Origin: an uncultured Candidatus Rokubacteria bacterium
Lineage (GTDB): Bacteria; Methylomirabilota; Methylomirabilia; Rokubacteriales; CSP1-6
NCBI GenBank assembly: GCA_963743355.1
Contig: CAVUPM010000002.1
Span: forward strand, 2,631,766-2,695,765
Length of the DNA stretch: 64,000 nucleotides
Direction: 5' to 3'
Shown in pieces: positions 2,730 to 53,449 of the stretch; positions within the stretch are counted from its first letter, which is position 1, and each line of letters starts with the position of its first letter. The position numbers and the translations under genes are program-made. Under the pieces are notes generated by a model. The model searched no databases, had not been told where the DNA came from, and worked only from the letters and a program-made list of their open reading frames with translations.

Positions 2730-3386
2730 ATGGACAGCGTCTTCTCCCAGCTGTGCGTGCTCGGCTCGAGCCTGGTGCTGATCTTCGGCCTCATCCTGCT
2801 GTGGCGGCGGGGCGTGACCGCGTACGTGACCGCCTTCGCCTGGCAGTCCATCGTGCTCTCGGTGGTGACGGCGATCGTGGCGTACTTCGGCGACGACCAC
2901 GAGCTCTACTGGGTAGCGGCCAGCCTCTTCCTGCTGAAGGTGGTCGTGATTCCGCGGCTCCTGAGGCGGATGCAGCGCCGGTTCGCGGCCGAGCGCGAGC
3001 TGGAGCCCTACGTCAACACGGCGACGTCCCTGGTGATCGCCGGCCTGCTCGTGCTCTTCGGCTACGCCATCACGCGGCCGCTCGTCGCGCTGAGTCAGCT
3101 GCCGACACGGGCCGGCATGCCGCTGGCGATGGGACTCGTGCTGGTGAGCCTGTTCGTCGTGATCAGCCGCAAGAAGGCGCTGACCCAGGTCGTCGGCTTT
3201 CTGATGCTGGAGAACGGCATCGCCCTGCTGGCGGTGCTGGGGACGTACGGGATCCCGCTGATCGTCGAGCTGGGCGTGTTCCTGGACGTCCTCATGGGGT
3301 TCCTGGTCATGCAGATCTTCATCTACCAGATCCACGAGACGTTCGAGAGCATCGACGTGGAACAGCTCAACCGCCTGAGGCACTGA
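2730..3386 (+). CDS. HyfE-like small hydrophobic subunit (NuoK-related) of a hydrogenase-4-type complex
   Basis: 218 aa with about 6 TM segments, sitting between the HyfC-like and HyfF-like genes as in hyf operons. Confidence 0.7.
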   Translation: MDSVFSQLCVLGSSLVLIFGLILLWRRGVTAYVTAFAWQSIVLSVVTAIVAYFGDDHELYWVAASLFLLKVVVIPRLLRRMQRRFAAERELEPYVNTATSLVIAGLLVLFGYAITRPLVALSQLPTRAGMPLAMGLVLVSLFVVISRKKALTQVVGFLMLENGIALLAVLGTYGIPLIVELGVFLDVLMGFLVMQIFIYQIHETFESIDVEQLNRLRH

Positions 3387-3393: not shown

Positions 3394-4851
3394 GTGAGCA
3401 CGTTCGCGATCCTCCTCGGCGCGCCGCTGCTGGCGGCGCTGCTGGCGGTGGCGGTGAAGCCCTATCGGCACCTCGTCGGATGGGCGAACGGCTTGCTGTC
3501 GCTGCTGTCGGTCGGCGCGGCGGTGGCGCTGTGGCGCTCCATCCTGGCCGGCGACGTGCTGACGTCGGGGCCCCGCGAGTTCCTGCGGGCCGACGCGCTC
3601 TCCACCCTGCTCGCGTTCTGCGTGAGCGTGGTGGGGGCGCTGGCGGCCTGGCTCGGGCCGGGCATGGGGGGCGATGACGGCTACGACGGCGCGCAGGCCC
3701 GGCGCTTCCGCATCTTCGGCAACCTGTTCACGTTCACGATGCTGTTCGCCGTGACCACGAACAACGTGGGGTTCATGTGGATCGCCATCGAGGCGACCAC
3801 GATCACGTCGGCGATGCTCATCCCGCTCCACGTGACGAAGGCGTCGGTCGAGGCCTCGTGGAAATATATCCTGATCGGATCGATCGGCATCGCGCTGGCG
3901 TTCGCGGGGACGGTGCTGGGCTACTTCGACTTCGTCAACCTCGCCGGCCGCCGGGAGGACGCGTTGAACTGGACGGTCCTGATGGCCGCGGCGCCGCACC
4001 TGCACGCGCCCGTGATCCAGCTCGCGTTCGTCTTCATCCTCATCGGGTACGGCACGAAGGCCGGCCTGGCGCCCATGCACACGTGGCTGCCCGATGCCCA
4101 CTCGGAGGCGCCGGCGCCGCTGTCCGCCATGATGTCGGGCGTGCTGCTCGCGGTCGCGCTCTACGCCGTGATGCGATGGGAGGCCGTCGTGAACGCGGCG
4201 GTGGGGACGCGGTTCACCGACGGCCTGTTCATCGTGCTCGGGATCCTCTCCATCGTCATCGCGGCCTTCAGCCTGGTGGTCCAGCGGAACTACAAGCGCA
4301 TGCTGGCCTACTCGAGCATCGAGCACACCGGGCTGATGTGCGTGGGGCTGGCACTGGGCCCCCTGGGCACCTTCGCGGCGATGCTGCACCTGCTCAACCA
4401 CACGCTGGCGAAGTCGACGATGTTCTTCCTCGCCGGCCGCATCCTTCACCGGTACCGGACCACGGAGATCGACGGGGTGTCCGGCCTCCTCCGGACCATG
4501 CCGTGGACGGGCGGCCTGTTCGCGGCGGCGGTGCTGGCCGTCGTCGGGCTGCCGCCCTTCGGCCTCTTCATCTCCGAGTTTGCGCTCTTCCGCGCCGGGT
4601 TCGCGGCCGGCCGCCCCTGGCTGATGGGGCTCGTCCTGGCGCTGCTCACGCTGGCGTTCGTCTCGATGATCGGGCACCTGAACCGGATGCTCTACGGCGC
4701 GCCGGCGGCGGGCACGGTCGTGGGCGAGGGGAACGCCTGGCCGCTGGTCCCACTCGGCGTGTGCATGGCGGCGCTGGTGGTCCTCGGGCTCACGCTGCCG
4801 GCGCCGCTGCAGACGCTGCTGGAGCACATCGTGGAGATCGTCGGGCGATGA
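3394..4851 (+). CDS. HyfF-like NuoN/NuoM-family antiporter-like subunit
   Basis: 485 aa with the conserved core (MHTWLPDAHSEAPAPLSAMMSGVLL, LAYSSIEHTGLM). Its stop overlaps the next start in an ATGA arrangement. Confidence 0.8.
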   Translation: MSTFAILLGAPLLAALLAVAVKPYRHLVGWANGLLSLLSVGAAVALWRSILAGDVLTSGPREFLRADALSTLLAFCVSVVGALAAWLGPGMGGDDGYDGAQARRFRIFGNLFTFTMLFAVTTNNVGFMWIAIEATTITSAMLIPLHVTKASVEASWKYILIGSIGIALAFAGTVLGYFDFVNLAGRREDALNWTVLMAAAPHLHAPVIQLAFVFILIGYGTKAGLAPMHTWLPDAHSEAPAPLSAMMSGVLLAVALYAVMRWEAVVNAAVGTRFTDGLFIVLGILSIVIAAFSLVVQRNYKRMLAYSSIEHTGLMCVGLALGPLGTFAAMLHLLNHTLAKSTMFFLAGRILHRYRTTEIDGVSGLLRTMPWTGGLFAAAVLAVVGLPPFGLFISEFALFRAGFAAGRPWLMGLVLALLTLAFVSMIGHLNRMLYGAPAAGTVVGEGNAWPLVPLGVCMAALVVLGLTLPAPLQTLLEHIVEIVGR

Positions 4852-6425
4852 CGCGCATCCCGGAGCTCACGAGGGCGGTCGGCGAGCAGCTCGCGCACGG
4901 CGTGACCGACGTGCGCACGGTGCGCGACAACGAGCTCCACTGCTCGGTCGACCCGGCCGCCGTCCCGGCGCTGGCGAGCCTTCTTCGGGCGGGGTTCGGC
5001 GGGGAGCTGGTCTTCATGGCCGCCGCCGACCGCCGCGCGGACCGGGCCGCGTTCGAGGTCCACTATCTCTTCACGCATCAGCGGGAAGACTGGTTCGTCC
5101 ACGCGTCGGCCACCGCGCCGGCCGACGCGCCCGTGATCCACTCGCTGGCCACGTTTCACTACCCGGCCTCGCGCTTCGAGCGGGAGATCTACGACCTCTT
5201 TGGAATCATCGCCGATGGTCATCCCGACCCCCGGCCCCTCGTCCGCCACGGATTCTGGCCGCCCGACTACTTCCCGCTGCGCAAAGACGCCGTCCCGCGC
5301 GAGTTCACCGACGACGGGCGCGCGTTTCCCTTCACCGAGGTGGGCGGGGAGGGCGTCTACGAGATCCCCGTCGGGCCGGTGCACGCCGGGATCATCGAGC
5401 CCGGGCACTTCCGGTTCAGTGTGGTGGGCGAGACGATCATCGACATGAAGTCGCGGCTGTACTTCACCCACAAGGGGACCGAGAAGCTCTTCGAGGGGCG
5501 CGAGCCCGCCGCCGGCGTCGAGCTGGCCGAGCGGATCTCCGGGGACACCACCGTGGGCCATGCGCTCGCCTTCTGCCAGGCGCTGGAGGCGGCCGCCGGA
5601 GTCCCGGCGCCGGAGCGGGCGGCCTACCTGCGGGTCGTCCTCCTCGAGATGGAACGCCTTTACAACCACGTGGGGGACTTCGGGGCGATCGCGAACGACA
5701 CCGGCTACGCGGTGGCGCACTCGCATTGCTTGCGGATCCGCGAGCGGCTGCTGCGCCTGAACAAGCGGCTCACCGGCAACCGGCTGCTCCGCGGCGGCAT
5801 CGTCCCGGGCGGCGTCGGGGTGGACCTCCCGGCGGGGCTGGACCTGCCGGCCGAAGTGGACGCCGCCCTGCGCGACTTCGAGGAGATCGCCGGGCTGGCC
5901 CTCGAGAACACGCTCGTCCTGGACCGGCTCGAGGGAACCGGGCGACTGACCACGGCGACCGCGCGCGACCACGGCGTCCTGGGCTACGTCGCGCGCGCCT
6001 CCGGCATCGATATCGATGTCCGCCGGGACCACCCGTTCGCGGCCTACGCTCACCTGTCCTTTCGGGTCCCGGTCTTCGAGTGGGGGGACGTCAAGGCGCG
6101 GACGCTGGTGCGCGTGGACGAGATGCGTGAGTCGGTCAAGCTCATCCGGCAGGCCGTGGACCGGCTGCCGGCGGGGCCGCTGACGGTCCCGCTGCCCGCA
6201 CTCCCCGCCTTCGCCCCGGCCTTCGCGCTGGTGGAGGGGTGGCGGGGCGCCATCATCCACTGGGTGATGGGCGGGCCCGACGGCCGGCTCTACCGCGTGA
6301 AGGTGATGGACCCGTCCTTCCTGAACTGGCGGCCGCTCTCGTACGCGCTGCTCAAGAACATCGTTCCCGACTTCCCGCTCTGCAACAAGTCGTTCAACCA
6401 GTCCTACTCCGGGAATGACCTATAG
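4848..6425 (+). CDS. HyfG/HycE-like large subunit: a NuoC-like N-terminal domain fused to a NuoD/[NiFe]-large-subunit-like domain; the Ni-Fe-ligating cysteine motifs are not conserved
   Basis: The N-terminus is NuoC-like (…FEREIYDLFGI…), followed by a NuoD/HycE-like body (ERISGDTTVGHALAFCQALE, LEMERLYNHVGDFG). Where HycE carries RxCGxCxxxH there is SGDTTVGH, and the C-terminal DPCxxC position reads DFPLCNKSF, so only 1 of the 4 expected Cys is present. Confidence 0.8.
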   Translation: MTRIPELTRAVGEQLAHGVTDVRTVRDNELHCSVDPAAVPALASLLRAGFGGELVFMAAADRRADRAAFEVHYLFTHQREDWFVHASATAPADAPVIHSLATFHYPASRFEREIYDLFGIIADGHPDPRPLVRHGFWPPDYFPLRKDAVPREFTDDGRAFPFTEVGGEGVYEIPVGPVHAGIIEPGHFRFSVVGETIIDMKSRLYFTHKGTEKLFEGREPAAGVELAERISGDTTVGHALAFCQALEAAAGVPAPERAAYLRVVLLEMERLYNHVGDFGAIANDTGYAVAHSHCLRIRERLLRLNKRLTGNRLLRGGIVPGGVGVDLPAGLDLPAEVDAALRDFEEIAGLALENTLVLDRLEGTGRLTTATARDHGVLGYVARASGIDIDVRRDHPFAAYAHLSFRVPVFEWGDVKARTLVRVDEMRESVKLIRQAVDRLPAGPLTVPLPALPAFAPAFALVEGWRGAIIHWVMGGPDGRLYRVKVMDPSFLNWRPLSYALLKNIVPDFPLCNKSFNQSYSGNDL

Positions 6426-6545: not shown

Positions 6546-6636
6546 AACGGCTGTCGATTTTCGCAGGCGATCGTCGTCGTAGGGAGTGAGTGGTCGCCGG
6601 GCGGCACCGGCCGTGGTGGCCCTCAGAGGAGGCTTC

Positions 6637-6984
6637 ATGCGCTACATGCTGCTCATCTGCGGCGACGAGAAGGTCGAGGCGGCCGTGCCACCGGCCGAGA
6701 TGACGGCCATCGTGCAAGGCCACATGCGCTTCGCGGACGAGCTGCGCGCGTCCGGCAAGATGGTCGTGGGCGAGCGCCTGCGGCCGGACGCCGACGCCAG
6801 CCGTATCCGTCTGAAGGCCGGACAGCGCCAGGTCACCGACGGCCCCTTCGCCGAGACGAAGGAAGCCCTGGGTGGCTTCTACCTGATCGAGTGCGCCAGC
6901 AAGCAGGAAGCCCTCGAGTGGGCGAAGAAGATCCCGCTCCGCCCCGACAGCTTCGTCGACGTACGACCGGTCTGGCAGATGTGA
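6637..6984 (+). CDS. YciI-like (YCII-related / DGPF domain) protein
   Basis: 115 aa, beginning MRYMLLICGDE and containing …GPFAETKEALGGFYLIECASKQEALEWAKKIPL. A strong GAGGAGG RBS lies 6 nt upstream of the ATG. Confidence 0.75.
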   Translation: MRYMLLICGDEKVEAAVPPAEMTAIVQGHMRFADELRASGKMVVGERLRPDADASRIRLKAGQRQVTDGPFAETKEALGGFYLIECASKQEALEWAKKIPLRPDSFVDVRPVWQM

Positions 6985-10970: not shown

Positions 10971-12049
10971 CGGGCGCGCCAGGCGCGGATCGCGCTCGCG
11001 GGAATCTCGAGCTGCACGACCGTTCCCTTGCTCAGCGGCTCGATCACCGGGCCCGAGGCGCGGACCCGGGCCGCGCCCACGGCGACGACGTACTCGACGC
11101 GCTCGCCCAGGTAGATCGCCGACAGGACCGTGCCCTGCCAGTGGCCGCCGGTCGAGGGCGGGCACACCCGGACGTCGGCCGACCGGAACGCGAGGACGAT
11201 CTCCTCACCGTCCTGCCAGCCCTGGTCCGGCGCCAGGGCCACCTCGCCGCCGTTGAGGCCGTCCGCGCGCGCCACGCAGACGCCGTCCGGCCGTCGCGTC
11301 ACCCGGGCCCGGACGTGATCGGCCTGGCCGAGGAAGTCCATCACGAACCGCGAGCACGGCTGCTCGTAGATCTGCCGCGGCGTGCCGGCCTGGGCGATCC
11401 GGCCGGCGCTCATCACGAACACCCGGTCGGACAGGATCATGGCCTCGGCCTGGTCGTGGGTGACGAAGACGGTGGTGACCCCGACGCGGGCCTGCAGCTC
11501 CTTCAGCTCGATGCGCATCTCCTCGCGAAGCCGCGCATCGAGATTGGAGAACGGCTCGTCGAGGAGCAGCACCTCGGGGTCCGCCACCAGCGCGCGCCCG
11601 AGCGCCACTCGCTGCTGCTGGCCGCCGGAGAGCAGCGGCGCCGGACGATCGTGGAACCCCTGCAGGCCGAGCGTCACCAGGATCGCCATGACCCGTTCCC
11701 GGATCTCGCCCGGGCGCAGCCGTTTTTCCCGGAGCGGAAAGGCGATGTTCTCGAACACCGTCATGTGCGGCCAGATGGCGTAGGTCTGGAACACCATGCC
11801 CATGCGCCGCTTCTCGGGCGCGAGGAAGACGGCCTGCGTGGTGGATGTCAGCAGCCGCCCGCCCACGGACACCTCACCCGCGTCGGGCCTCTCGAGGCCG
11901 GCGATGAGCCGGAGCGTGGTGGTCTTGCCGCAGCCGCTCGGCCCGAGCAGCGTCGCGAGTGATCCGGCGGGAACCTCGAATCCCACGCCGTTCACGGCCA
12001 GGGCCTTGCCGAACGCCTTCGTCAGACCGCTCACCCGGATGTCCGGCAC
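10967..12049 (-). CDS. ABC transporter ATP-binding protein (FbpC/PotA-like importer ATPase with C-terminal TOBE-like domain)
   Basis: Walker A GPSGCGKTT, signature LSGGQQQRVALGRAL and Walker B LLLDEP. A GTG start at 12049 follows GGAGG with a 7-nt spacer. The listed ORF extends further upstream but that stretch is low-complexity. Confidence 0.85.
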   Translation of the reverse strand: MPDIRVSGLTKAFGKALAVNGVGFEVPAGSLATLLGPSGCGKTTTLRLIAGLERPDAGEVSVGGRLLTSTTQAVFLAPEKRRMGMVFQTYAIWPHMTVFENIAFPLREKRLRPGEIRERVMAILVTLGLQGFHDRPAPLLSGGQQQRVALGRALVADPEVLLLDEPFSNLDARLREEMRIELKELQARVGVTTVFVTHDQAEAMILSDRVFVMSAGRIAQAGTPRQIYEQPCSRFVMDFLGQADHVRARVTRRPDGVCVARADGLNGGEVALAPDQGWQDGEEIVLAFRSADVRVCPPSTGGHWQGTVLSAIYLGERVEYVVAVGAARVRASGPVIEPLSKGTVVQLEIPASAIRAWRAR

Positions 12050-12156
12050 AGCCCGCCTCCTTGCAGTCCTGTCCTGATACCCGAGAACGAGGGCGAAGTC
12101 CAGAGACGGCGGTGCCCGCGGCCTCCGCCGCGCCTGGCTTCGAGTACCATCGGCGC

Positions 12157-13470
12157 GTGGGATGGATCCCGGGCGGGCCGGTCGCGGATGGAGGCGTCCC
12201 CGCGCGCGTGGCCGAGGCGTTCCGGCTGGAGTCCGCGCGCGTGGTCGCCTCCGTGCTGCGGATCGTGCGCGACATCGACGCGGCGGAAGAGATCGTGCAG
12301 GAGGCGTTCGCGCGGGCGCTCGATCGGTGGCCCACCGGCGGCACACCCGATCGCCCGGGCGCGTGGCTCCTGACGACGGCCCGGCGGCGCGCGCTCGATC
12401 ACCTGCGCCGGGCTCGCCGGGCCGGCCGGCACGCCGCCGCGCTCGCGTACGAGGCGGCGCTCGACGCGCTCGACGAGGAGCCCGGCGTGACCGAGCCCGG
12501 AGCGATCGCCGACGACCGGCTCCGCCTGATCTTCACGTGCTGCCATCCGGGCCTGCCGGCCGACAGCCGCGTCGCGCTCACGCTGAGGCTGGTCGGCGGC
12601 CTGTCGACGCCGGAGATCGCGCGGGCCTTCCTCGTGCCCGAGCCCACGATCGCCCAGCGGCTCGTGCGCGCGAAGCGGACGATCCGCGACCGCGCCCTGC
12701 CCTACGAGGTCCCCGAGGGCGCCGAGCTGGCCGCGCGGCTGCCGGCGGTACTCGCGGTGGTCTACCTGATCTTCAACGAGGGCTACGCCGCCCACGCCGG
12801 CGACACTCTCGTGCGTCACGACCTTTGCCACGAGGCCATCCGCCTCGGGCACATGCTCGCCGAGCTGATGTCCGACGAGTCGGAGGTACTGGGACTCCTG
12901 GCGTTGATGGAGCTGCAGGCCTCCCGGGGCGCGACGCGCACCGACGCCGACGGCGAGCTCGTCCTGCTCGCCGATCAGGATCGGGCGCGCTGGGATCGGG
13001 CGGCCATCGCGCGCGGCCTGGCCGGGCTCGACCGCGCGGGGCGGCTGGAGCGAGCCGGACCGTACCAGCTGCAGGCGGCCATCGCCGCCTGCCACGCGCG
13101 CGCGGGCTCCTGGGAAGCGACGGACTGGTCGACGATCGTCGGGTACTACGATGCGCTCGCGGCCGTCACGCCCTCGCCGGTGATCGAGCTGAATCGAGCG
13201 GTGGCGATCGGCCTGGCGTCCGGACCGGCGGCTGGCCTGGCGGCGCTCGACGGCATCGGCGCCGACGCGCTGCACGGCTATCACCTGCTGCCCGCCGCCC
13301 GCGCCGACTTCCTGCGCCGCCTCGGGCGCTGGACGGAGGCGGCCGCGGAGTACCGCCGGGCGCTCGAGCTCGTCGACAATGCCCGTGAGCGATCGTTCCT
13401 CGCAGCCAGGCTCGCCGCCTGCGAAGCCCGGCGTGACGCGGGCGGGGTGGGCGTGAGGTGGGGTCCGTGA
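12157..13470 (+). CDS. ECF-type sigma-70 factor with a long C-terminal TPR-like extension (ECF42-like)
   Basis: Sigma2 and sigma4 regions are present (…IVQEAFARALDRW…, …LVGGLSTPEIARAFLVPEPTIAQRLVRAKRTIR). The YLIFNEGY motif is followed by about 200 aa of helical repeats. A YciI/DGPF gene lies nearby at 6637. The start is assigned to an in-frame GTG. Confidence 0.75.
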   Translation: MGWIPGGPVADGGVPARVAEAFRLESARVVASVLRIVRDIDAAEEIVQEAFARALDRWPTGGTPDRPGAWLLTTARRRALDHLRRARRAGRHAAALAYEAALDALDEEPGVTEPGAIADDRLRLIFTCCHPGLPADSRVALTLRLVGGLSTPEIARAFLVPEPTIAQRLVRAKRTIRDRALPYEVPEGAELAARLPAVLAVVYLIFNEGYAAHAGDTLVRHDLCHEAIRLGHMLAELMSDESEVLGLLALMELQASRGATRTDADGELVLLADQDRARWDRAAIARGLAGLDRAGRLERAGPYQLQAAIAACHARAGSWEATDWSTIVGYYDALAAVTPSPVIELNRAVAIGLASGPAAGLAALDGIGADALHGYHLLPAARADFLRRLGRWTEAAAEYRRALELVDNARERSFLAARLAACEARRDAGGVGVRWGP

Positions 13471-14053: not shown

Positions 14054-14987
14054 ACGCCCTGGAGCTGGGCGCGACCCCAGGCCACGTCGACCGCGCCCGC
14101 GGGCGTGACGACGGCGCCGGGGACCTCCGGCACGACGGGGTCCTGGCCGGCCACCGTCGTGCGATGCATCACGCGGCGGTACGCGCTCTCGTCCCACGGG
14201 CGCCCGCGGTGCAGCACGCAGCGGTTGTCCCACATCACCAGATCGCCCGGCTGCCAGCGATGCGTGTAGACGAGCCCGGGGCGCGTCGCGCGCTGGAGCA
14301 GATCGCGGAGCAGCGCGCGCGCCTCCTCGGTCGGCATGCCGACGATCTCGCAGGCGTGCGACCCCACGTAGAACGCCTTGCGCCCATGGCGCGGGTTGGC
14401 GCGCACGAGCGCCTGGGGGACGGGCGGAACCTGGGCGGCGTGATCCGGCGGCAGCAGGCCGTCGTCGATCAGGCCGCGCGAATAGACGAAGCTGTGGATG
14501 GCGACCCTGCCCTCGAGGAACCGCTGCGTCGGCTCCGGCAGCGCCTCGTAGGCGACCCGCATGCTCGCGAACTCCGTCTCGCCTCCCCGGGTGGCACCTC
14601 GCGCGCCGACAGCAGCGAGGCGTGGGCCGGCACGCGCTTGAAGGAGCTGTCGCTGTGCCACATCTGGTTGCCGGCGTTGAAGAGGTTGCGCTTGTCGCCG
14701 GCCGGGATCAGCCGGTCCTCGGCGTCCACGTTGGCGAGGTTCGAGACCTCGGGGGCAACCCGGGCCAGCGAGGTGATCGTGCGGAGCGACGTCTCGAGCG
14801 GTCCGAACCGGCGGCTGAAGGCGATCTGCGCCTCGTCGCCGAGCTGCTGCCCGCGGAAGAGCAGCACCGAGTGCTCGTCGAAGGCCTCGACGATCTCGGC
14901 GAACCTCGCGTCGTCCACGCCCCGGACGTCGACGCCCAGGATCTCGACCCCGAAGCACGGATGCAACCGACGCGTCTCGAGCGCCAT
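14050..14987 (-). pseudogene. TauD/TfdA-family alpha-ketoglutarate-dependent dioxygenase with a single frameshift
   Basis: The N-part (MALETRRLHPCFGVEILGVDV…HSDSSFKRVPAHASLLSAREVPP) and C-part (GGETEFASMRVAYEALPE…HRWQPGDLVMWDNRCVLHRG) are in different frames. The break is in a C/G run near 14590. GGGAGG RBS. Confidence 0.75.
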
Positions 14988-15007
14988 GGCAGCGTCCTCC
15001 CTGAGGG

Positions 15008-16610
15008 TTACTCGGCCAGCCAGACGGTGTCGAGCGTCTGGTTGAGGAAGTGGCTCGGCATGATCGTCCAGCCTCGGACCTTGGCGTTGTGGGGAATGAT
15101 CCGGTGCCACTGGAAGCCCATGATGAAGTGCACTTCGTCGTCGTAGAGGCGCTTCTCGAACTGCCGCAGGAGCCGCCGCCGTTCCTCGGGATCCAGCGTC
15201 CGCGACTGCCGGGCGTAGAGGTCGTCCATCACGGTGTCCTTGTGCTTGCCGTAGTTCACCGGCGACGTCGTGAGGAACCAGTGGATGTCCATGTCGGGCT
15301 CGACGATCGAGTTGCAGGGCGCGGTGACGGCCACCTCGAAGTCGCCGCTTCCTCAGCGCCCCGAACCAGCCGGACGTCTCCAGCGACACGTGCTTGACGG
15401 TGATGCCCACCTGCCGCCACTGATCGATGAGCCAGATGCCGAACGGCTCGTAGGGCTGCGGCACCGCGCGGTTCAGCAGCGTGAACGACAGGTTCTCGAC
15501 GCCGGCCTCCTTGAGCAGGCGCCGCGCCTCGGCCCGCGCCGCGTTGATGTCGCGGCCGTAGCCGGCCAGCTTCTCCAGCTCGGCCGGCGGCGTCGCCCAC
15601 GGGGTGCCGGGCACCTGGATGCCGGCCACCTCCTTGATCAGCGCGATCCGGGAGAGCGCCTTGGAGCCCTCGTGCCGGTCGAGCGCCAGCGTGAGCGCGC
15701 GCCGCACACGCTTGTCGTCGAACGGCTTCTTCTGCTCGTTGGGCGTGACCCCGATGGAGCAGTTCCACGGGCTCTCCTGCACCGTGATCTTGCTGCCGAG
15801 CGCGTTCACCAGGCTGTCGCGGTCGGCCGGCGTGAAGCCGCGGAACTGGATCATGGCGCGCTCGCCGCGGACGGCCGCCACCTGGGCGGAGGCGCTGGGG
15901 ATGAAGATGGCGCGAAAGCCGTCGAGGTAGGGCTTGCCCTTGTCCCAGTAGTCGGGGTTCTTCTTGCCGACCCAGTGCGAGCCGCGCACGTACTCGACGA
16001 ACTTGAAGGGGCCGGTGCCCATCACGTTCTTCTCGTACCAGCGCGGGTCCTTGGCCAGGATGTCGGCCTTGTAGATCCAGTTCCAGGGCGACGCCAGCTG
16101 GGCCATGAACGAGGCTTCCGGGCGCTTCAGCCGGAAGACGACCGTGTCCGGCGTCGGCGCCTCCACCGACTCCACGGTGGCGTAGGTGGCCTGGCGGCTC
16201 GAGACGACGCCGGGCGGCGGGAAGATGATGTGGTCGTAGGAGGCCTTGACGTCCTTCGACGTCATCACGCTGCCGTCGTGGAACTTCACGCCCTGGCGGA
16301 CCTTGAACGTGTAGGTCCGGTGGTCCGGCGAGATCGTCCACGACTCGGCGAGGTCGCCCACGAACTTGGTGCCGGTGCGGTCGGTGGGATCGACCCGCAT
16401 CAGCGTGTTGTACTGCGGCGCCCTCGGGTGGAGCATCGCGAACGTTTCCTCGCGGTGCGCGTCGAAGCTCGGGGGCTCGGCGGCGACGACGAAGACCAGC
16501 TCGCCGCCGCTGCGGGGTTTCTCCTGCGCGGCCGCCGGCGCGACCGCGGCGAGGGTGATGAGCAGAGCCAGGCACGTGACGATCGACACTGATCTGACGC
16601 ACAGCCTCAT
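15008..16610 (-). pseudogene. ABC transporter substrate-binding protein, family 5 (DppA/OppA/NikA-like), one frameshift
   Basis: Signal peptide (MRLCVRSVSIVTCLALLITLAAVAPAAAQ), then the SBP_bac_5-like body to …GWFGALRKR, then a frame change near 15337 into …DFEVAVTAPCNSIVEPDMDIHWFLTTSPVNYGKHKD…TVWLAE. Confidence 0.75.
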
Positions 16611-16739: not shown

Positions 16740-17768
16740 ATGCCGATCGCCACTCCCGAGATCTACGCCGCCATGCTCGATCGGGCGAAGGCCGGGGCCT
16801 TCGCCTACCCGGCCATCAACGTCAGCTCCTCGCAGACCCTGAATGCCGCCCTGAAGGGCTTCGCCGACGCGGCCAGCGACGGCATCATCCAGGTCTCCAC
16901 CGGCGGTGCGTCCTACCTCTCCGGCGCCAAGGTCAACGACATGGTCGTGGGGGCCTCGGCGCTGGCCGAGTACGCGCACGTGGTGGCCGCGCAGTATCCC
17001 GTCAACATCGCGCTGCACACCGACCACTGCCCCAAGAACAACCTCGACAAGTACGTCCGGCCCCTGATCGCGATCAGCCAGGAGCGCGTCGCGCGGGGGC
17101 AAGGCCCTCTGTTCCAGTCGCACATGTGGGACGGCTCGGCGGTCCCGCTCACCGAAAATCTCGCGATCGCCCGCGAGCTGCTGGCCGCCTGCCAGAAGGC
17201 GAAGATCGTCCTGGAGGTGGAGATCGGGGTCGTCGGCGGCGAGGAGGACGGCGTGGTCGGCGCCATCAACGCGAAGCTGTACTCCACCCCCGAGGACGCG
17301 CTGCTCACCGCGGCGGCGCTGGGGACCGGCGAGCACGGCCGCTATCTCCTCGCCGCGACGTTCGGCAACGTGCACGGCGTCTACCAGTCCGGCCACGTCA
17401 AGCTGCGGCCGCCAGTCCTCAAGCAGATCCAGGACGTCGTGGGCAGGAAGACCGCCAGGGCCAAGCCGTTCGACCTCGTCTTCCACGGCGGCAGCGGCTC
17501 GCTGCTCGAGGAGATCCGGGAGACGCTGGACTACGGCGTGGTGAAGATGAACATCGACACCGACACTCAGTACGACTTCACACGGCCGATCGTCGATCAC
17601 ATGATGAAGAACTACAGCGGCGTGCTCAAGGTCGACGGCGACGTCGGCGAGAAGAAGGCGTACGACCCGCGGACGTGGGGCAAGGCCGCCGAGGCCGGCA
17701 TGGCGGCCCGCGTCGTGCGCGCCTGCGAGGATCTCCGGTCGGCCGGCACGACCCTGGCTACCTCATGA
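16740..17768 (+). CDS. fba: Class II fructose-1,6-bisphosphate aldolase
   Basis: 343 aa (MPIATPEIYAAMLDRAKAGAFAYPAINV…HTDHC…GNVHGVY…FHGGSGS). RBS GGAAAGGAG. Confidence 0.9.
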   Translation: MPIATPEIYAAMLDRAKAGAFAYPAINVSSSQTLNAALKGFADAASDGIIQVSTGGASYLSGAKVNDMVVGASALAEYAHVVAAQYPVNIALHTDHCPKNNLDKYVRPLIAISQERVARGQGPLFQSHMWDGSAVPLTENLAIARELLAACQKAKIVLEVEIGVVGGEEDGVVGAINAKLYSTPEDALLTAAALGTGEHGRYLLAATFGNVHGVYQSGHVKLRPPVLKQIQDVVGRKTARAKPFDLVFHGGSGSLLEEIRETLDYGVVKMNIDTDTQYDFTRPIVDHMMKNYSGVLKVDGDVGEKKAYDPRTWGKAAEAGMAARVVRACEDLRSAGTTLATS

Positions 17769-19256
17769 TGCCTCCGGTCGGCTGGGTGGCGGAGTGACGG
17801 GGCGGCGCTGCGGCATCGGGGTGGCGCGCAGGCTGTCGAGCGCGATCGCCGGCATGTCGAGGCTGAGCGCCCGCAGCACGCCGTTGGCGAGCTCGTCGTA
17901 GCGGCTGAAGGCGCGGCGCAGGCGCGCGCGCCAGGCGACGACGCCGCCATTGGCGTGCAGCTCGAACGCGGATTCGCGGCCGTCCAGGGCCGAGGCGACG
18001 TGGTCGGCGGCGAGCTGCAGCAGCGCCGCCCGCTGCAGCGCCGTGTACCCGCCGCCGCCGAACGACTCCTCGAGCCCGGCGCCGATCTCCGGCGACGCCA
18101 GGTCCTTGTCCGACGGCGCGACGACGAGCGACGAGCCGGGCAGGATCCGCAGGATCTCGGCCATGCGCTGCCGCGCCCTCTGCATGGCCAGGCTGCCCGC
18201 GGCGACGTGGGCGCGGCCGGGAATGCAGACACCGTCTTCACCGGGCTCGGGATCCAGCTCGGCGGCGGTCTGGCAGCTCCGGACCGTCTGCACGTCGGTG
18301 ACGAGATCCATCAGGTACTCGAGCGTCGGCTCGTGGTCCTTGAGCCCCATCGCGTCGGCGCAGGCCAGCGCCAGCCCCAGCGTGAACTCGGCCTTGGCCA
18401 GCCAGGCGTAGAGCTGGTGCCAGAAGCACCAGGAGGCGATCGGCTCCGGTGACGGCTCGGTGAGGAAAACGCGCTCCCACGGGACGAGCACGTCGTCGAG
18501 CCAGAGCTGACCATCCAGCTCGTCGAAGCGGCTGCTCAGGGGCGCCAGGAACGGATTGGGGTGGCGCGCGGAGACCTTGCGGCAGAGGACGGTGACACCG
18601 GGCGCGTTCACGGCCACGACGAAGGTCGCGCGGTGGCCGGCGTGATCGACGCCCGAGTGGCTGCCGATGTACACGTCCTCGGCGTAGACGGGACTGGTGT
18701 GCATGCCGACCTTGCCGCGCAGCACGAGGCCGGCGCTGCTCTCGCGGACGACCCGCAGCGCGGCACGCTCGCGTGGGTCCTCGCGCAGCCGGTAGCCGAT
18801 GGTCGCCGCCCCGGCCGAGAACGTCAGGAACCGGCCGGTGCGCGCGATCAGATCGCGATAGTCGGTCGCATCGGCGATCTGCTTCGGCGAGACCTTGCGC
18901 TGGCGGACGGCGTCGAGGATGCCCAGCGCGATGAGGTTGCCGTAGCCCGGCGTGTGCGTCATGTTGCCCGCCGTCTGGAAGATCGTGGCGGAATAGCTCC
19001 GCCCCATCGCGCGCAGGTCAGCCGCGCTCGCCGGCACGACGAAGGCCCACGGGGTTCGCGCGCCCCGCGCGTCGGGTGGGGTGAGGACGAGGTCCTGCCA
19101 GGCGGGATCGCGGTGGCGGTCGTACCAGGCGACGTACTCCTCCACCATCGGGCGAGTGGCGGGATGCAGCGTCACGTCCTCGATCAGGCCCTCGCCCATG
19201 ACGAAGACCCGACGGCCGTCGCGCAGGGTCTCGCGATACTCGGCGCCGGTGCGCAT
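17763..19256 (-). CDS. HpaB-family flavin-dependent monooxygenase oxygenase component (4-hydroxyphenylacetate 3-monooxygenase-like)
   Basis: About 497 aa starting MRTGAEYRETLRDGRRVFVMGEGLIEDVTLHPATRPMVEEY…. Its ATG overlaps the upstream TGA by 1 nt. Confidence 0.8.
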   Translation of the reverse strand: MRTGAEYRETLRDGRRVFVMGEGLIEDVTLHPATRPMVEEYVAWYDRHRDPAWQDLVLTPPDARGARTPWAFVVPASAADLRAMGRSYSATIFQTAGNMTHTPGYGNLIALGILDAVRQRKVSPKQIADATDYRDLIARTGRFLTFSAGAATIGYRLREDPRERAALRVVRESSAGLVLRGKVGMHTSPVYAEDVYIGSHSGVDHAGHRATFVVAVNAPGVTVLCRKVSARHPNPFLAPLSSRFDELDGQLWLDDVLVPWERVFLTEPSPEPIASWCFWHQLYAWLAKAEFTLGLALACADAMGLKDHEPTLEYLMDLVTDVQTVRSCQTAAELDPEPGEDGVCIPGRAHVAAGSLAMQRARQRMAEILRILPGSSLVVAPSDKDLASPEIGAGLEESFGGGGYTALQRAALLQLAADHVASALDGRESAFELHANGGVVAWRARLRRAFSRYDELANGVLRALSLDMPAIALDSLRATPMPQRRPVTPPPSRPEAS

Positions 19257-20306
19257 CAGGCGAGCTTGGGCATGACGTGCTCGGCGAAACGGCGCATGGC
19301 CAGCTCGGCCTCCTCCTGCGGCAGCATCGAGCCCTGATCGAACCAGCCGATGATCTGCGAGAGCCCGAACTCGTCGCGCGCGGCCTGCAGCCGATCGACG
19401 ACCTCGGCGGCGTCGCCGAAGACCGCCTGGTCGCGGACAGAACCTCTCGAACGGCAGGTTGGCCAGGGTCTCCTCGATGATCCGCAGGCGCGGCAGGTGG
19501 TCGGCGTAGGAGTCGGGAAGCTGAGAGAAGATCGTGCGGAGGTTCTCGTAGTACCTCCGCACGCCCGGCCGCATCGCATCCCGCGCGGCCGCACTGGTGG
19601 CGCCGACGTGGATGGGGAACATCAGCGCCATCTGATCGGGCTGCCACGCGTGCCCGGCGGCGGCCAGGCGCGCGCGATAGAGCGTCATGTACTCGCGGAG
19701 CTGGGGCAGCGGCGTGGTCGTCGTGCCCGAATAGATCGGCAGCCCGGTGCCGGCGATGTGGGCGAAGCTCTCCGCCGAGTGCACGGCCACGCGGATGGGC
19801 GGATGCGGCCTCTGCACCGGCCGCGGGACCACCGAGACGTCCTCGACCTGATAGAACGTCCCTCGAAAGCTGAACCGCTCCTGCGTCCACGCCAGCCGGA
19901 TGATCTGCAGTGCCTCGTCGAAGCGCTCGCGGTTCTCCGCCACCGGGATGCCGAAGCCGTGAAACTGGCTGGGGATCGACCCGCGGCCGACGCCGAACTC
20001 CAGGCGCCCGCCCGACAGGAGATCGGCGGTGGCGGCCTGCTCGGCGCAGCTCAGCGGATGATGCAGGGGCAGCAGGCTGACGGCGGTCCCGACGCGGATC
20101 CGCTTCGTGCGGTGGGCGATCACCGGCACCGCCATGAGCGGGTTCGACAGCAGCGAGAAGGCGCCGCCGAAGTGCAGCTCGGCCAGCCAGGCCACGTCGA
20201 AGCCCAGCGACTCGGCCAGCGCGATGCGGTCGAACATCTCGCCGTAGCGCTCGGTGTGCGTCTGCCCCGGGGCCTCCGGCGCCTGGAAGAAAAGGCCGAA
20301 TCGCAT
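19256..20306 (-). pseudogene. Luciferase-like (LLM-class) flavin/F420-dependent oxidoreductase with one frameshift
   Basis: MRFGLFFQAPEAPGQTHTERYGEMFDRIALAESLGFDVAWLAELHFGG… continues to …ETLANLPFERF, then a frame change near 19450 into …VRDQAVFGDAAEVVDRLQAARDEFGLSQIIGWFDQG…PKLA*. Confidence 0.7.
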
Positions 20307-20367
20307 CGCAGGCGAGCATACGGCATACTGCCCCTCGCCGTCACCCCGCGCCAAAGGAGCCGGGATC

Positions 20368-20916
20368 ATGCCGAGAGTCGCCCCCGTCACCGGGAAGTCC
20401 GACGTGCCCGCCGAGCACCATCACGTGGTCGACGCCGTCATGGAGGTGTTCGGCAACGTGCGCGGCCCCTTCAGCATGCTGCTGCACAGCCCGAAGCTGG
20501 CCGAGCGGGTGCTGGGCCTGGTCAAGTTCTTCCGCGACGAGAGCATCGTCGAAGGCCGGCTGCGGTCGCTGGCCATCCTCACCGCGGTGCGGGAGCGTGA
20601 GGCAGCCTACGTGTGGGCGGCGCAGGTGGGGGCGGCGCGCCGGGCCGGCCTGCGCGAGGAGGCGATCGACCTGATCCGCGCGAAGGGCGATCCGGGCAAG
20701 CTGCCGGCGGAGGAGGCGGAGATCGTCGCCTACACGCGTCAGCTCATGCGCACCAACCGCGTCGACCAGGCGGCGTTCGACGCGCTCGCCAAGCGCCATG
20801 GGGCGCAGTGGATTCTCGAGCTGACGGCCGCGGCAAACTACTTCGCGATGCTGTCCGGCGTGGTCAACGCCTTCGAGGTCCCCGCCCCGCCCGACGGCGA
20901 CAAGCTGCCCGCGTGA
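20368..20916 (+). CDS. Carboxymuconolactone decarboxylase-family (AhpD-like) protein
   Basis: 182 aa, RBS AAAGGAG. Transcribed divergently from the LLM gene. Confidence 0.7.
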   Translation: MPRVAPVTGKSDVPAEHHHVVDAVMEVFGNVRGPFSMLLHSPKLAERVLGLVKFFRDESIVEGRLRSLAILTAVREREAAYVWAAQVGAARRAGLREEAIDLIRAKGDPGKLPAEEAEIVAYTRQLMRTNRVDQAAFDALAKRHGAQWILELTAAANYFAMLSGVVNAFEVPAPPDGDKLPA

Positions 20917-27406: not shown

Positions 27407-28596
27407 GCCGGCGCCGGCGCTCGCTCGCGATCGTCGCCGTCCTCCTCCTGCTGGGCCTCGGCGGGTTCGCCGCCTGGCGTTTCTTTCTCGCGGGGCCCGA
27501 CGGCCCCCCGGGCGTGCTCGCCGTGAGCGGACGGATCGAAGGGGACGACGCCGCCATCGCCGCCAAGACCACCGGGCGGATCCGCGAGCTCACCGTGCGG
27601 GAAGGCGATCGCGTCGAAGCCGGCCAGGTCATCGCCATGCTCGACGACGAGCAGGTCCGCGCCCGTGAGCAGCAGGCGGCGGCCGCCGTCCGGCAGGCCG
27701 AGGCCCGCGTGCGCCTGGCCCAGCACCAGATCACGGTGCTCGAAGAGCAGCTCCGGCAGAGCCGGCTCGGTGTCGACCAGGCGCGCGTGGATGCCCAGGG
27801 CCGGGTCAGCGAGGCCGAAGGCCGGCTGGCCGCGGCCGAGGCCCAGCTGGCCCAGGCCGAGGCGTCGCACGCGCAAGCCCGGTGGGACCGCGAGGCGTTC
27901 ACGCGCCTCTACCAGCGCGAGCTCGTGGCCGAACAGGAGGTGCGACGGACGCAGCACAACGAGGAGGCGCAGGCGGCGGTGGTCGCGGCCGCGCGGCGTC
28001 AAGTCGAGGCCACCCGTGGCTCGCTCATGGCGGCGCGGGCCAATCTCGTCAATCCGGCCATTCGCGCCTCGCAGGTTGCCGCCGTCGAGGGGCAGATCCT
28101 CCAGGCTCGGGCGGACATCGCCGCCGCGCAGGCGGACGCCGAGCGCGCACGCGCTCAGCTCGAGGAGGCGCAGGCCAACCGCCGCGATCTCCACATCGTC
28201 GCGCCGTTCGGCGGCACCGTCGCGACGCGAACGGCCGAGCCGGGCGAGGTCGTCATGGCCGGTACGCCGGTCGTCACGCTGGTGAACCTGGGCGAGGTCT
28301 ATCTCCGGGCGTTCGTCCCCGAGGGCCAGATCGGGCGCGTGCGCGTGGGCCAGCCGGCGCGGGTCTATCTCGACTCCGCCCCGGCGACGCCGATCGACGC
28401 GCTCGTCTCCCGCGTCGATCCGGAGGCGTCGTTCACTCCCGAGAACACGTACTTCCGCGAGGACCGGGTGAAGCAGGTGGTCGGCGTGAAGCTGCAGCTC
28501 CGCGGCGCCGTCGGCTTCGCAAAGCCGGGGATGCCGGCCGACGGCGAGATCCTCGTCGACGGCAGCGTGTGGCCGACCCGTCAGGCGCGCCGATGA
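27403..28596 (+). CDS. HlyD-family membrane fusion protein (YbhG-like)
   Basis: N-terminal TM segment, long coiled-coil region, then a beta-barrel/lipoyl-like C-terminus (…VVTLVNLGEVYLRAFVPEGQIGRVRVGQPARVYLDS…). Confidence 0.8.
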   Translation: MSRRRRSLAIVAVLLLLGLGGFAAWRFFLAGPDGPPGVLAVSGRIEGDDAAIAAKTTGRIRELTVREGDRVEAGQVIAMLDDEQVRAREQQAAAAVRQAEARVRLAQHQITVLEEQLRQSRLGVDQARVDAQGRVSEAEGRLAAAEAQLAQAEASHAQARWDREAFTRLYQRELVAEQEVRRTQHNEEAQAAVVAAARRQVEATRGSLMAARANLVNPAIRASQVAAVEGQILQARADIAAAQADAERARAQLEEAQANRRDLHIVAPFGGTVATRTAEPGEVVMAGTPVVTLVNLGEVYLRAFVPEGQIGRVRVGQPARVYLDSAPATPIDALVSRVDPEASFTPENTYFREDRVKQVVGVKLQLRGAVGFAKPGMPADGEILVDGSVWPTRQARR

Positions 28597-30530
28597 ACGA
28601 TCCGGCCGCCGCCATCCGGGTCCGCGCGCTCACGAAGCGATACGGCGACGTCGAGGCGGTGCGTGGCATCGACCTCGACGTGGAGCCCGGCGAGATCTTC
28701 GGTCTCATCGGACCGGACGGCGCCGGGAAGACCTCGACCTTCCAGATCCTGGGCGGCGTGATGGAGGCGACGTCCGGCGCCGCCGAGCTGCTCGGGCGGC
28801 CGGCGCGCGAGGCGCGGGCGTTCGTGGGCTACCTCACCCAGGCGTTCAGCCTCTACCCGGACCTGAGCGTGGCGGAGAATCTCCGGTACGTGGGCGAGCT
28901 GCGGCGAGTGCCGGTGCCGGCGATCGAGCAGCGCGGGCACCGCTATCTCACGATGTTCGGGATGGAGCGCTTCACCGGCCGGCTGGCCGGGCGGCTCAGC
29001 GGTGGCATGAAGCAGAAGCTGGCGCTGGCCTGCGCGCTGGTGGCCGAGCCGCGCATCCTCCTTCTCGACGAGCCGACGACGGGCGTCGATCCGGTCTCCC
29101 GTCGCGAGTTCTGGGACGCGCTCGCCCAGCTCTCGAGCGAGGGCATCACCATCGTGCTGGCGACGCCGTACCTGGACGAGGCGGAGCGCTGTCATCGCGT
29201 CGCCCTCATGCACGAGGGGCGCATCCACCGGACCGGGACGCCGGCTGCGCTGCGCCAGGCCCTCGGACTGCAGCGCCTCGAGGTGCGCGCGGCGGACCTG
29301 CGCCGGGCGGAGACGACGCTGGCGCAGCGCGACGGCATCGTCGACGTCCAGCGCTTCGGCGACCGTCTCGACGTGATGGTGCGCGACGTGCAGGCCGGCG
29401 AACGCACCGTCCGCGAGACGCTGGCCGGCGCCCACCTCACCGTGGAGAGCGTTCGGCCGGCGACGCCCACGCTCGAGAACACGTTCGTCGCCCTTCTGCG
29501 TGGTCTCGAGGGTGACCCGCGCATCCCCGAGTTCCCGGGCGGCGGCGACCACGGGCCGTCCGACGGCGCGGTGGCCATCGGCGCCCAGGCCCTGAGAAAG
29601 CGGTTCGACGCGTTCGAGGCCGTCAAGGGGATCGATCTGCACGTGCGCTACGGCGAAGTGTATGGCCTGCTCGGCGCCAACGGCGCGGGAAAGACCACCA
29701 CGATCAAGATGCTCTGCGGCCTGCTGGAGCCGAGCGAGGGCGAGGTGCGGCTGGCGGGCGAGGTCGACGAGCTGCGCTCCGCGAGGGTGCGCCAGCAGGT
29801 CGGCTACATGTCACAGAAGTTCTCCCTGTACGACGACCTCACGATCGACGAGAACCTCGACTTCTTCGCCGGCGTCTATCGCGTGCCGTCCGCGCGGCGC
29901 GCCGCGCGGAAGCGCTGGGTCCTCGAGTTCGCCGGCCTCGAAGGCCGCGGAGGTCAGCTCACCGGCAGCCTGCCGGGCGGATGGAAGCAGCGCGTGGCGT
30001 TCGGCGCGGCGATCATGCACGAGCCGCGCGTCCTCTTCCTCGACGAGCCGACGTCGGGGGTGGATCCGATCGCCCGCCGCGCGTTCTGGGCCATGATCAA
30101 CCGGCTCGCCGACCAGGGCACCGCGATCCTGGTCACCACGCACTACCTGGAAGAAGCCGAGCAGTGCAACCGTCTGGGGTTCATGGTCGCCGGCGAGCTC
30201 GTGGCGGAGGGCACGCCCAGCGGCGTGAAGGCCGCCCAGGGCGGCCGCGTGCTCGAGATCCGCACCGACGCGCCCCAGCGCGCGGTGACGTTGCTGAAGA
30301 GGGAAATGGAGCCCTGGCGCGTCTCGCTCTTCGGCGATCGGTTCCACGTCATCGTCGAGGGCGACGCCGAGGCCGCCGCGCGCCGGCTCGAGGCCCGGCT
30401 CGCGCGCGACGGCATCCGGGTCCTCGAGGCGACCGCGCAGGACTACACGCTGGAGGACGTCTTCCTGGTCATCGCCGAGAAGGGCGGAGCGCTATGCGAC
30501 GGATCCTCGCCCAGGCCCGCAAGGAGCTGA
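28593..30530 (+). CDS. ABC transporter ATP-binding protein with two tandem ATPase domains (YbhF-like)
   Basis: Two full cassettes: GPDGAGKTST/LSGGMKQKLALACAL/LLLDEPTTGVD and GANGAGKTTTIKM/LPGGWKQRVAFGAAI/LFLDEPTSGVD. Confidence 0.85.
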   Translation: MNDPAAAIRVRALTKRYGDVEAVRGIDLDVEPGEIFGLIGPDGAGKTSTFQILGGVMEATSGAAELLGRPAREARAFVGYLTQAFSLYPDLSVAENLRYVGELRRVPVPAIEQRGHRYLTMFGMERFTGRLAGRLSGGMKQKLALACALVAEPRILLLDEPTTGVDPVSRREFWDALAQLSSEGITIVLATPYLDEAERCHRVALMHEGRIHRTGTPAALRQALGLQRLEVRAADLRRAETTLAQRDGIVDVQRFGDRLDVMVRDVQAGERTVRETLAGAHLTVESVRPATPTLENTFVALLRGLEGDPRIPEFPGGGDHGPSDGAVAIGAQALRKRFDAFEAVKGIDLHVRYGEVYGLLGANGAGKTTTIKMLCGLLEPSEGEVRLAGEVDELRSARVRQQVGYMSQKFSLYDDLTIDENLDFFAGVYRVPSARRAARKRWVLEFAGLEGRGGQLTGSLPGGWKQRVAFGAAIMHEPRVLFLDEPTSGVDPIARRAFWAMINRLADQGTAILVTTHYLEEAEQCNRLGFMVAGELVAEGTPSGVKAAQGGRVLEIRTDAPQRAVTLLKREMEPWRVSLFGDRFHVIVEGDAEAAARRLEARLARDGIRVLEATAQDYTLEDVFLVIAEKGGALCDGSSPRPARS

Positions 30531-36094: not shown

Positions 36095-36100
36095 GCGTCG

Positions 36101-53436: not shown

Positions 53437-53449
53437 GCGAGGAGATACG

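Follow-up and report, generated by a model that had tools for sequence, protein, structure and literature searches.

Can an operon that resembles those of hydrogenase 4 encode something other than a hydrogenase and, if so, what? The question is raised by a locus at the start of a 64,000-nucleotide stretch of DNA from an uncultured Candidatus Rokubacteria bacterium (assembly GCA_963743355.1, contig CAVUPM010000002.1, positions 2,631,766 to 2,695,765), hereafter referred to as the window. The encoded complex is, in our assessment, very probably of the energy-converting hydrogenase-related (Ehr) type and not a hydrogenase, because its large-subunit homolog, EhrL, has no residues able to hold a Ni–Fe center. 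An earlier, sequence-only reading of the window had likewise described the complex as Ehr-type, known from comparative genomics and of unknown function, a description that matches the ligand loss, the clade, the operon architecture and the literature. The locus represents a new occurrence of an already described, widespread family; the occurrence is real, but the family is not new.

Sequence comparison indicates that the window holds the end of an Ehr-type operon, namely its final five genes, EhrA-B-C-D-L. The genome is of Methylomirabilota/Rokubacteria, the nearest named relatives of EhrL being metagenome-assembled genomes (MAGs) of Methylomirabilota and Candidatus Rokubacteria. The five genes are co-directional, all unbroken apart from the cut at the window edge, and their boundaries overlap or nearly abut. 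They are arranged as follows:

1–1788, + strand: EhrA, HyfB/NuoL-like antiporter-type membrane subunit (Pfam and NCBIfam matches)
1785–2726, + strand: EhrB, HycD/NuoH-like membrane subunit (Pfam NADHdh, E = 1e-40)
2730–3386, + strand: EhrC, HyfE-like small membrane subunit of 218 aa (NCBIfam match, weak Pfam match)
3394–4851, + strand: EhrD, HyfF/NuoM/N-like antiporter-type membrane subunit of 485 aa (Pfam Proton_antipo_M, E = 2e-50)
4848–6425, + strand: EhrL, NuoC–NuoD fusion of 525 aa, large-subunit homolog without [NiFe] ligands (Pfam match, HycE alignments)

The 5′ end of EhrA is cut by the window start, leaving 595 of approximately 674 aa visible; the visible part matches Pfam Proton_antipo_M (E = 7e-47) and scores 670 bits against NCBIfam NF005086, 'hydrogenase 4 subunit B', whose cut-off is 667. 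The GTG start of EhrB overlaps the EhrA stop, with an alternative GTG at 1779, and its closest solved structures are HycD (7z0s_D, E = 5e-43) and next MbhM (1e-25), with ND1 of complex I reaching only about 1e-7. EhrC scores 98 bits against NCBIfam NF008556, 'hydrogenase 4 membrane subunit', under the cut-off of 136; its residues 132–217 give a weak match to Pfam Oxidored_q2 (NuoK-like), and it is 98% identical to its counterpart in the closely related locus L001. EhrD reaches 420 bits with the NCBIfam HyfF models, again under the cut-off, and its stop is overlapped by the ATGA start of EhrL. The earlier claim that hydrogenase-4-like membrane subunits are encoded here therefore stands, with HyfB-, NuoH/HycD-, HyfE- and HyfF-like genes upstream of EhrL, the HyfB-like one being cut. 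The Pfam domains of EhrL, namely Complex1_30kDa (NuoC, residues 33–151), an N-terminal piece of NiFeSe_Hases (210–275) and Complex1_49kDa (NuoD, 284–447), bear out the NuoC–NuoD fusion architecture that had been likened to HycE/HyfG. The protein had been given as 526 aa; the open reading frame (ORF) at 4848–6425 on the + strand translates to 525 aa plus stop.

The columns that would carry the [NiFe] ligands were set by pairwise alignment and by a 62-sequence profile alignment to Escherichia coli HycE (7z0s_E). EhrL aligned to HycE with an E-value of 4e-71 in the pairwise comparison and 1.5e-124 in the profile comparison, at full length and with high posterior, and the columns were identical in both. 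The segments equivalent to the two ligand motifs, L1 and L2, are the following:

5532–5561, + strand: L1 equivalent RISGDTTVGH, residues 229–238, aligned with HycE RVCGICGFAH
6396–6422, + strand: L2 equivalent NQSYSGNDL, residues 517–525, aligned with HycE DPCYSCTDR

The four ligand columns of EhrL are occupied by Ser231 and Thr234 (L1) and by Ser519 and Gly522 (L2), with zero ligand cysteines, and the L1/L2 CxxC motifs characteristic of group 4 [NiFe] hydrogenases are absent. As in its closest Cys-bearing relatives, the protein stops right after the L2 equivalent, without a C-terminal extension. The possibility that ligand cysteines were hidden by local misalignment is answered by the two alignments, both of which give non-Cys residues at all four columns. 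EhrL contains four cysteines in total (residues 32, 243, 294 and 512), none in a ligand column and no two forming a CxxC pair, which corrects the earlier statement that only one cysteine is left. The same reading was right in naming SGDTTVGH as the replacement of the first CxxC motif and wrong in naming DFPLCNKSF as that of the second: the latter segment lies directly upstream of the true, C-terminal equivalent NQSYSGNDL and ends one residue before it. Cys512 of DFPLCNKSF is outside the ligand columns, and this position holds C, I, V or A among relatives.

To place these residues in a wider context, we fetched 80 loci from related genomes for comparison of gene order, neighbors and motifs. The same Cys-less motifs were present in 75 of the 80 loci and in approximately 90 of 112 representatives of 50%-identity clusters, so the loss of cysteines is not due to chance or to a sequencing artifact. 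SGD..H and N.SY.G.D motifs mark the 75 Cys-less loci, those of Mycobacterium among them; five loci of Bacillota share the operon and retain RICGxC and ELCY[SA]C. Among Cys-less representatives, the replacement residues are well kept at the L1 equivalent (S231 in 68/95, G232 in 88/95, D233 in 80/95) and at the L2 equivalent (S519 in 81/95, Y520 in 80/95, G522 in 87/95, D524 in 91/95). Asp233 is family-specific in the per-column counts, Cys-bearing relatives carrying V, A or I there. A strict search for columns dividing Cys-less from Cys-bearing sequences returned just the two C-terminal ligand columns and gave no further hint of a new substrate site, Asp233 having surfaced only through the per-column counts. 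Outside the ligand columns, EhrL closely resembles the large subunits of true hydrogenases. Nine representatives of the Cys-less clade (P0198, P0207, P0219, P0220, P0225, P0240, P0246, P0263 and P0270) carry a lone cysteine at the first L1 position, with CESG, CSAG, CSSG or CASG as the patterns observed, which could be an intermediate state or reflect another use of the residue.

Several of the features that define the Ehr family are found at this locus. The large subunit is homologous to group 4 hydrogenase large subunits and NuoD, with HycE as the closest solved relative, yet it lacks the Ni–Fe CxxC motifs, and NuoH-like and antiporter-like membrane genes lie alongside it, as judged from Pfam, NCBIfam and relatives in the PDB. 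EhrL passes no curated hydrogenase or NuoD family cut-off, and no model specific to it was found in Pfam or NCBIfam. Approximately 40 ORFs of the window, mostly of at least 200 aa, were scanned and contained no hyp, nickel-transport or fdh genes. The family has been described since 2005/2013, and citing papers credit it to Coppi and to Marreiros et al. Published occurrences include Geobacter, Margulis-, Sagan- and Melainabacteria, the candidate phyla radiation (CPR), comammox Nitrospira, ammonia-oxidizing archaea and the Mycobacterium tuberculosis complex; our literature search found no account of Ehr in Rokubacteria. The function of Ehr is stated as unknown in the literature up to 2023. In public databases, EhrL-type proteins are named either 'NADH-quinone oxidoreductase subunit C' or 'Ni,Fe-hydrogenase III large subunit', and both annotations are misleading.

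A species scan using one genome per species identified at least 593 genomes encoding a relative. They belong to Methylomirabilota, Chloroflexota, Nitrospirota, Actinomycetota (Streptomyces, Nonomuraea, Mycobacterium), Acidobacteriota, Verrucomicrobiota, Bacillota, Omnitrophota, CPR lineages, Saganbacteria and archaea. In every one of the 80 loci, the six genes of the module (S, A, B, C, D and L) occurred together. Rokubacteria, Actinomycetota, Chloroflexota and CPR have them in the order (ArsR)-S-A-B-C-D-L, and the remaining lineages have A-B-C-D-L-S. Many loci of the second order encode an EhrS with an N-terminal 2×[4Fe–4S] ferredoxin domain; such fused proteins measure 240–350 aa (for example in L028, L029, L035, L037, L051 and L058) and occur in Cys-less and Cys-bearing operons alike. 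The EhrS subtype of Rokubacteria and Actinomycetota has no ferredoxin-like domain. Beyond the module itself, and apart from generic genes of two-component or ABC systems, the only recurring neighbors in the 80 loci are ArsR-type regulators; no gene for formate dehydrogenase, for NuoE/F or for a separate ferredoxin, and no hyp gene, was conserved as a neighbor there.

The phylogeny that the sequence-only reading had proposed as a check places EhrL inside a Cys-less clade beside Cys-bearing group 4 relatives. In a neighbor-joining tree of 112 sequences, in which the branch leading to the Cys-less clade is short and which was computed with no bootstrap and without curated HydDB references, the 90 Cys-less sequences, the query among them, all fall into a single clade, and about 20 Cys-bearing sequences are basal. 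This placement agrees with the published position of Ehr beside group 4f. Two Nitrospirota MAG loci (L055 and L077) contain tandem Ehr operons, both Cys-less and differing in their motif variants (SGTSSFAH/NLSYSGTDM and SGDTTVAH/NQSYSGNDL), which implies duplication or the acquisition of two subtypes per genome.

The part of the operon that would lie upstream of the window can be reconstructed from close relatives. In loci at 92% and 85% identity (L001 and L002), a gene for an ArsR/SmtB-type helix-turn-helix protein is followed by one for a 168-aa NuoB-like protein, by one or two HyfB-like genes and then by the same genes as in the window. L001 (2882–6941), the closest relative with genomic context, has a tandem pair of HyfB-like (EhrA) genes, and L002 has one; in Geobacter, the name EhrA-1 is used. 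The ArsR-type regulators of both loci contain zero cysteines. The 168-aa EhrS of these relatives matches Oxidored_q6 and carries a hydrogenase-type CxxC...C...C ligand set for a [4Fe–4S] cluster; across the loci compared, the four cluster cysteines are kept in 72–75 of 76 (approximately 95%), with CxxC spacing of the hydrogenase type. Judging from these relatives, the complete unit would comprise an ArsR-type regulator, EhrS with one [4Fe–4S] cluster, EhrA, EhrB, EhrC, EhrD and EhrL. A canonical NuoB-like small subunit counts as part of the Ehr definition, so its presence in relatives does not refute the Ehr assignment.

The operon is under purifying selection. Relative to homologs, EhrL, EhrD and EhrC show ratios of nonsynonymous to synonymous substitution rates (dN/dS) of 0.12–0.18, and conservation reaches 85–100% at the charged residues characteristic of antiporter-like and NuoH/HycD-like subunits. 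These residues include E62, K142, K220, K271, E326 and K368 of EhrA (window numbering), the acidic loop residues E191, D198, E205, E211 and E216 of EhrB, and E133, K222 and K340 of EhrD, the last three being 100% conserved. Because the replacement motifs are conserved, dN/dS is low and the membrane charges are kept, the operon is no decaying relic and is predicted to be functional.

What, then, would the complex do? The best explanation is probably that the operon encodes a working redox-linked ion-translocating module that is not a hydrogenase. That Ehr couples net electron transfer to ion translocation is a more tentative proposition, to which we give slightly less than an even chance. The comparisons establish what the parts are, that the Ni–Fe ligands have been lost, that the Fe–S ligands (in related loci) and the membrane charges are conserved, and that selection is purifying. 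How electrons flow, between which partners, and which ion is moved in which direction we infer as follows. A soluble donor of low potential, either ferredoxin or a partner dehydrogenase encoded elsewhere, would deliver electrons to the single [4Fe–4S] cluster of EhrS. The electrons would then pass to an acceptor, probably not a quinone, in a remodeled pocket formed by EhrL, EhrS and EhrB, to which EhrL may contribute Ser231-Gly-Asp233...His238 and Ser519-Tyr-Ser-Gly522. A resulting change in charge or conformation could be relayed through the HycD-like loop of EhrB to the antiporter-like EhrD and EhrA, which would move H+ or Na+; the path of the ions as a whole would run through EhrB-C-D-A. 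The reverse direction, with an ion gradient driving electron transfer, is also conceivable. The fusion of a 2×[4Fe–4S] ferredoxin domain to EhrS in many lineages argues that the family transfers electrons.

Several observations weigh against this explanation. The window begins inside EhrA, so that EhrS and the regulator are assumed here on the strength of relatives. Neighborhood clustering of the 80 loci revealed no donor or acceptor gene conserved beside the Ehr operon. The Rokubacteria/Actinobacteria subtype has one cluster, no ferredoxin-like domain and no obvious second redox site, which weakens the case for a net redox reaction. The mid-membrane lysine of the MBH, MBS and NdhD relatives is alanine in EhrD, and the literature found contains no biochemical data on any Ehr. 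An AlphaFold2 model of EhrL, with a mean predicted local distance difference test (pLDDT) score of 84, has HycE (7z0s_E) as its top fold match (template modeling score 0.85), but pLDDT falls below 50 at the pocket (residues 163–207 and 519–525), so the model is unreliable as a guide to the site. A fold search with this model returned merely HycE and NuoD again, and the PDB entries searched by sequence, profile and fold included no Ehr structure.

Other explanations have to be weighed against a working non-hydrogenase module. One would take the locus at its public face value, as a genuine group 4 [NiFe] hydrogenase of the Hyf/Hyc kind, belonging to a formate hydrogenlyase (FHL), whose cysteine ligands escaped notice through misalignment: relatives are named 'Ni,Fe-hydrogenase III large subunit', Pfam NiFeSe_Hases matches EhrL at 210–275, and the M. 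tuberculosis homologs were long annotated as formate hydrogenlyase. With non-Cys residues at all four ligand columns in pairwise and profile alignments of high posterior, with cysteines only at 32, 243, 294 and 512 and no CxxC pair, with no curated hydrogenase family cut-off reached, and with no hyp, nickel-transport or fdh genes in the window ORFs scanned (mostly at least 200 aa) or conserved near the 80 loci, its probability is practically nil; the four non-Cys columns refute it at the sequence level, and it was rejected. A former hydrogenase operon that has lost its active site and is drifting toward pseudogenes is very improbable as well. Many ORFs elsewhere in the window are indeed frame-disrupted or fused, which would suit a decaying relic, but the Ehr genes are five consecutive unbroken genes with overlapping start and stop codons, their dN/dS is 0.12–0.18, at least 593 species genomes from many phyla preserve the replacement motifs along with the six-gene module, and Ehr subunits of Geobacter sulfurreducens have been seen as proteins that vary with growth substrate. 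The pseudogene reading is contradicted by these conservation data and was rejected.

The two rivals that remain accept a working complex and differ in its chemistry. A complex-I-like quinone reductase would pass electrons from ferredoxin or another donor through the EhrS cluster to menaquinone at the EhrL/EhrS/EhrB interface while pumping ions; the subunits are homologous to NuoB, C, D, H, L and M/N, many hosts are respiring aerobes (Streptomyces, Mycobacterium, Nitrospira), and the literature has proposed Ehr and related Cys-less forms as evolutionary intermediates toward complex I. Pairwise alignment with Thermus thermophilus Nqo4 (2fug_4) places Gly232 and Ile183 of EhrL at the columns of Tyr87 and His38, which we take to be the quinone-headgroup ligands. 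EhrB is far more similar to HycD and MbhM (5e-43 and 1e-25) than to ND1 (about 1e-7). The cluster motif of NuoB consists of tandem cysteines, unlike the hydrogenase-type CxxC of EhrS. Cys-less members also occur in Acetobacterium, which is not known to synthesize quinones. Others occur in CPR and Saganbacteria, and the Margulis/Saganbacteria relatives have been reported to be without quinone synthesis. Because of the ligand columns, the HycD-like EhrB, the CxxC motif and the occurrence in quinone-free lineages, quinone is unlikely to be the general Ehr acceptor, and a quinone reductase, which we consider improbable, was rejected as the leading mechanism. The remaining alternative dispenses with net redox chemistry: Ehr would be an Mrp-like cation/proton antiporter or ion-handling module whose EhrS/EhrL cap and cluster serve as a structural element or a redox-sensing gate. 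It is favored by membrane subunits of Mrp/antiporter type, by an operon that comes with a regulator and not with dehydrogenase genes, and by the subtype in the window, which has a single Fe–S cluster and neither a recognizable acceptor site nor a conserved gene for a redox partner. With one cluster and no partner gene, an antiporter with a regulatory or structural cluster stays a serious rival. We nevertheless judge it unlikely: about 95% of loci keep all four ligands of the cluster, the 2×[4Fe–4S] domain added to EhrS elsewhere makes little sense without electron flow, and EhrL, its ligand columns aside, has stayed very similar to the large subunits of true hydrogenases.

A further idea concerns the replacement residues. 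Ser231-Gly232-Asp233...His238 together with Asn-x-Ser519-Tyr520-x-Gly522-x-Asp524 may form, beside the retained [4Fe–4S] cluster, a new catalytic or ion-binding site and not a scar, a suggestion that we regard as rather doubtful. If it were true, Ehr would form a class of its own, a minimal respiratory enzyme or redox-gated ion pump with six subunits and a single cluster, acting on a substrate foreign to hydrogenases, complex I and MBS in hundreds of aerobic and anaerobic lineages, M. tuberculosis included. Few members of the complex I/hydrogenase superfamily whose reaction is still to be found are as widespread as Ehr; its hosts range over soil aerobes, nitrifiers, CPR, archaea and M. tuberculosis, in which the locus is part of the response to hypoxia. 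Its substrate and coupling ion, once known, would close a gap in the account of how proton-reducing hydrogenases gave rise to quinone-reducing complex I, and the knowledge could matter for mycobacterial persistence. The contribution of the window to this is small, namely that Rokubacteria carry the M. tuberculosis-type operon under purifying selection, and the cross-phylum comparison adds the conservation of the replacement residues, especially Asp233. Since the host is uncultured and the operon is cut at the window edge, Streptomyces, mycobacteria and Geobacter are better suited for functional tests.

The remainder of the window was surveyed more briefly. Directly 3′ of the Ehr operon lies a gene for a YCII-domain protein (6586–6984), and about 5.5 kb downstream of the operon one for an extracytoplasmic function (ECF)-type sigma factor with a DUF6596 C-terminal domain (11959–13470); neither is conserved beside Ehr at other loci. 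Many ORFs appear frame-disrupted or artificially fused (14469–16610, 17763–20390, 27882–32721, 34983–36252 and 45886–48967). Among them, SBP_bac_5 occurs with a partial TauD and a luciferase-like monooxygenase with HpaB, adh_short is divided between two ORFs that overlap, ABC2 permeases have N-termini that do not match, and a split radical-SAM gene is joined to AMP-binding_C. The pattern points to indel errors in a MAG assembled from long reads or to true pseudogenes; no such frame break affects the Ehr operon. The segment from 52000 to 64000 has a GC content of 0.61–0.64, compared with approximately 0.70, and carries phage structural genes on the + strand:

55765–56421, + strand: terminase large subunit
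58906–59514, + strand: S78 prohead protease
59931–61340, + strand: HK97-type capsid protein
61425–62060, + strand: head–tail connector
62529–63275, + strand: tail tube protein

This segment is a prophage or phage remnant. A ribosomal operon had been considered for the low-GC end of the window and was rejected in view of the phage genes there.

Comparison with known systems places the Rokubacteria operon closer to some than to others. MBS offers a precedent, being a hydrogenase-derived membrane complex that has lost H2 chemistry and whose proximal Fe–S cluster serves another substrate. The L and H subunits of Pyrococcus furiosus MBS/Mbx (6U8Y) are detectable relatives, yet far more distant than HycE (E = 3e-34 versus 4e-71); MBS also comprises a NuoI-like subunit and far more subunits of the Mrp type, and nothing in Ehr points to sulfur chemistry. 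With complex I (NuoB, C, D, H, L, M, N), Ehr has in common a homologous core fold and a modular layout comprising a hydrophilic cap that bears a terminal [4Fe–4S] cluster, a NuoH-like connector and antiporter-like subunits. Ehr lacks the NuoE/F/G/I module, its EhrB is much nearer to HycD than to ND1, and the 80 loci, with their six conserved genes, contain none for NuoE/F/G, NuoI, A, J or K. In the FHL complex and hydrogenases 3 and 4 of E. coli (7Z0S), HycE and HycD are the best solved relatives of EhrL and EhrB, the counterparts in complex I being clearly more distant, and the NuoC–NuoD fusion is common to both systems; Ehr differs in lacking the Ni–Fe ligands and the C-terminal extension of the large subunit, as well as any HycF-like ferredoxin subunit, fdh, hyp or HycI-type protease gene in the operon or its neighborhood.

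Closer still are the Cys-bearing 4f-like sisters of Firmicutes (for example Thermincola L037, Ectobacillus L080 and Desulfotomaculum L081), which have the same six-gene operon, the short C-terminus and 37–47% identity. They share nearly all conserved residues with Ehr but keep RICGxC and ELCY[SA]C and carry V, A or I in place of Asp233; they are presumably true hydrogenases. Within the Ehr family, some lineages differ from the type seen in the window in having EhrS last and fused to a 2×[4Fe–4S] domain. The G. sulfurreducens complex EhrA-1/EhrC/EhrL/EhrS (GSU0739-45) shares the CxxC-less large subunit, the NuoB-like small subunit and the HyfB/HycD/HyfE/HyfF-like membrane subunits, and its subunits, detected as proteins, are more abundant on formate. 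The described Geobacter and M. tuberculosis hosts differ in phylum from the present one (Methylomirabilota/Rokubacteria). M. tuberculosis Rv0081–Rv0087, called EHR in the literature and long labeled formate hydrogenlyase, runs rv0081 (regulator), rv0082 (NuoB-like), rv0083 (HyfB-like), hycD, hycP (HyfE-like), hycQ (HyfF-like), hycE, and Rv0081 is an ArsR/SmtB protein without a metal site and without cysteines. Mycobacterium loci L045 and L074 have SGD... and NLSYAGNDL motifs, compared with NQSYSGNDL at the L2 equivalent here, at approximately 49–50% identity to the query. The regulator-S-A-B-C-D-L order of M. tuberculosis is the same as in the relatives of the window; it recurs in L001, L002, L004–L006 and the Mycobacterium loci L030, L042, L045 and L049, and the window shows its last five genes.

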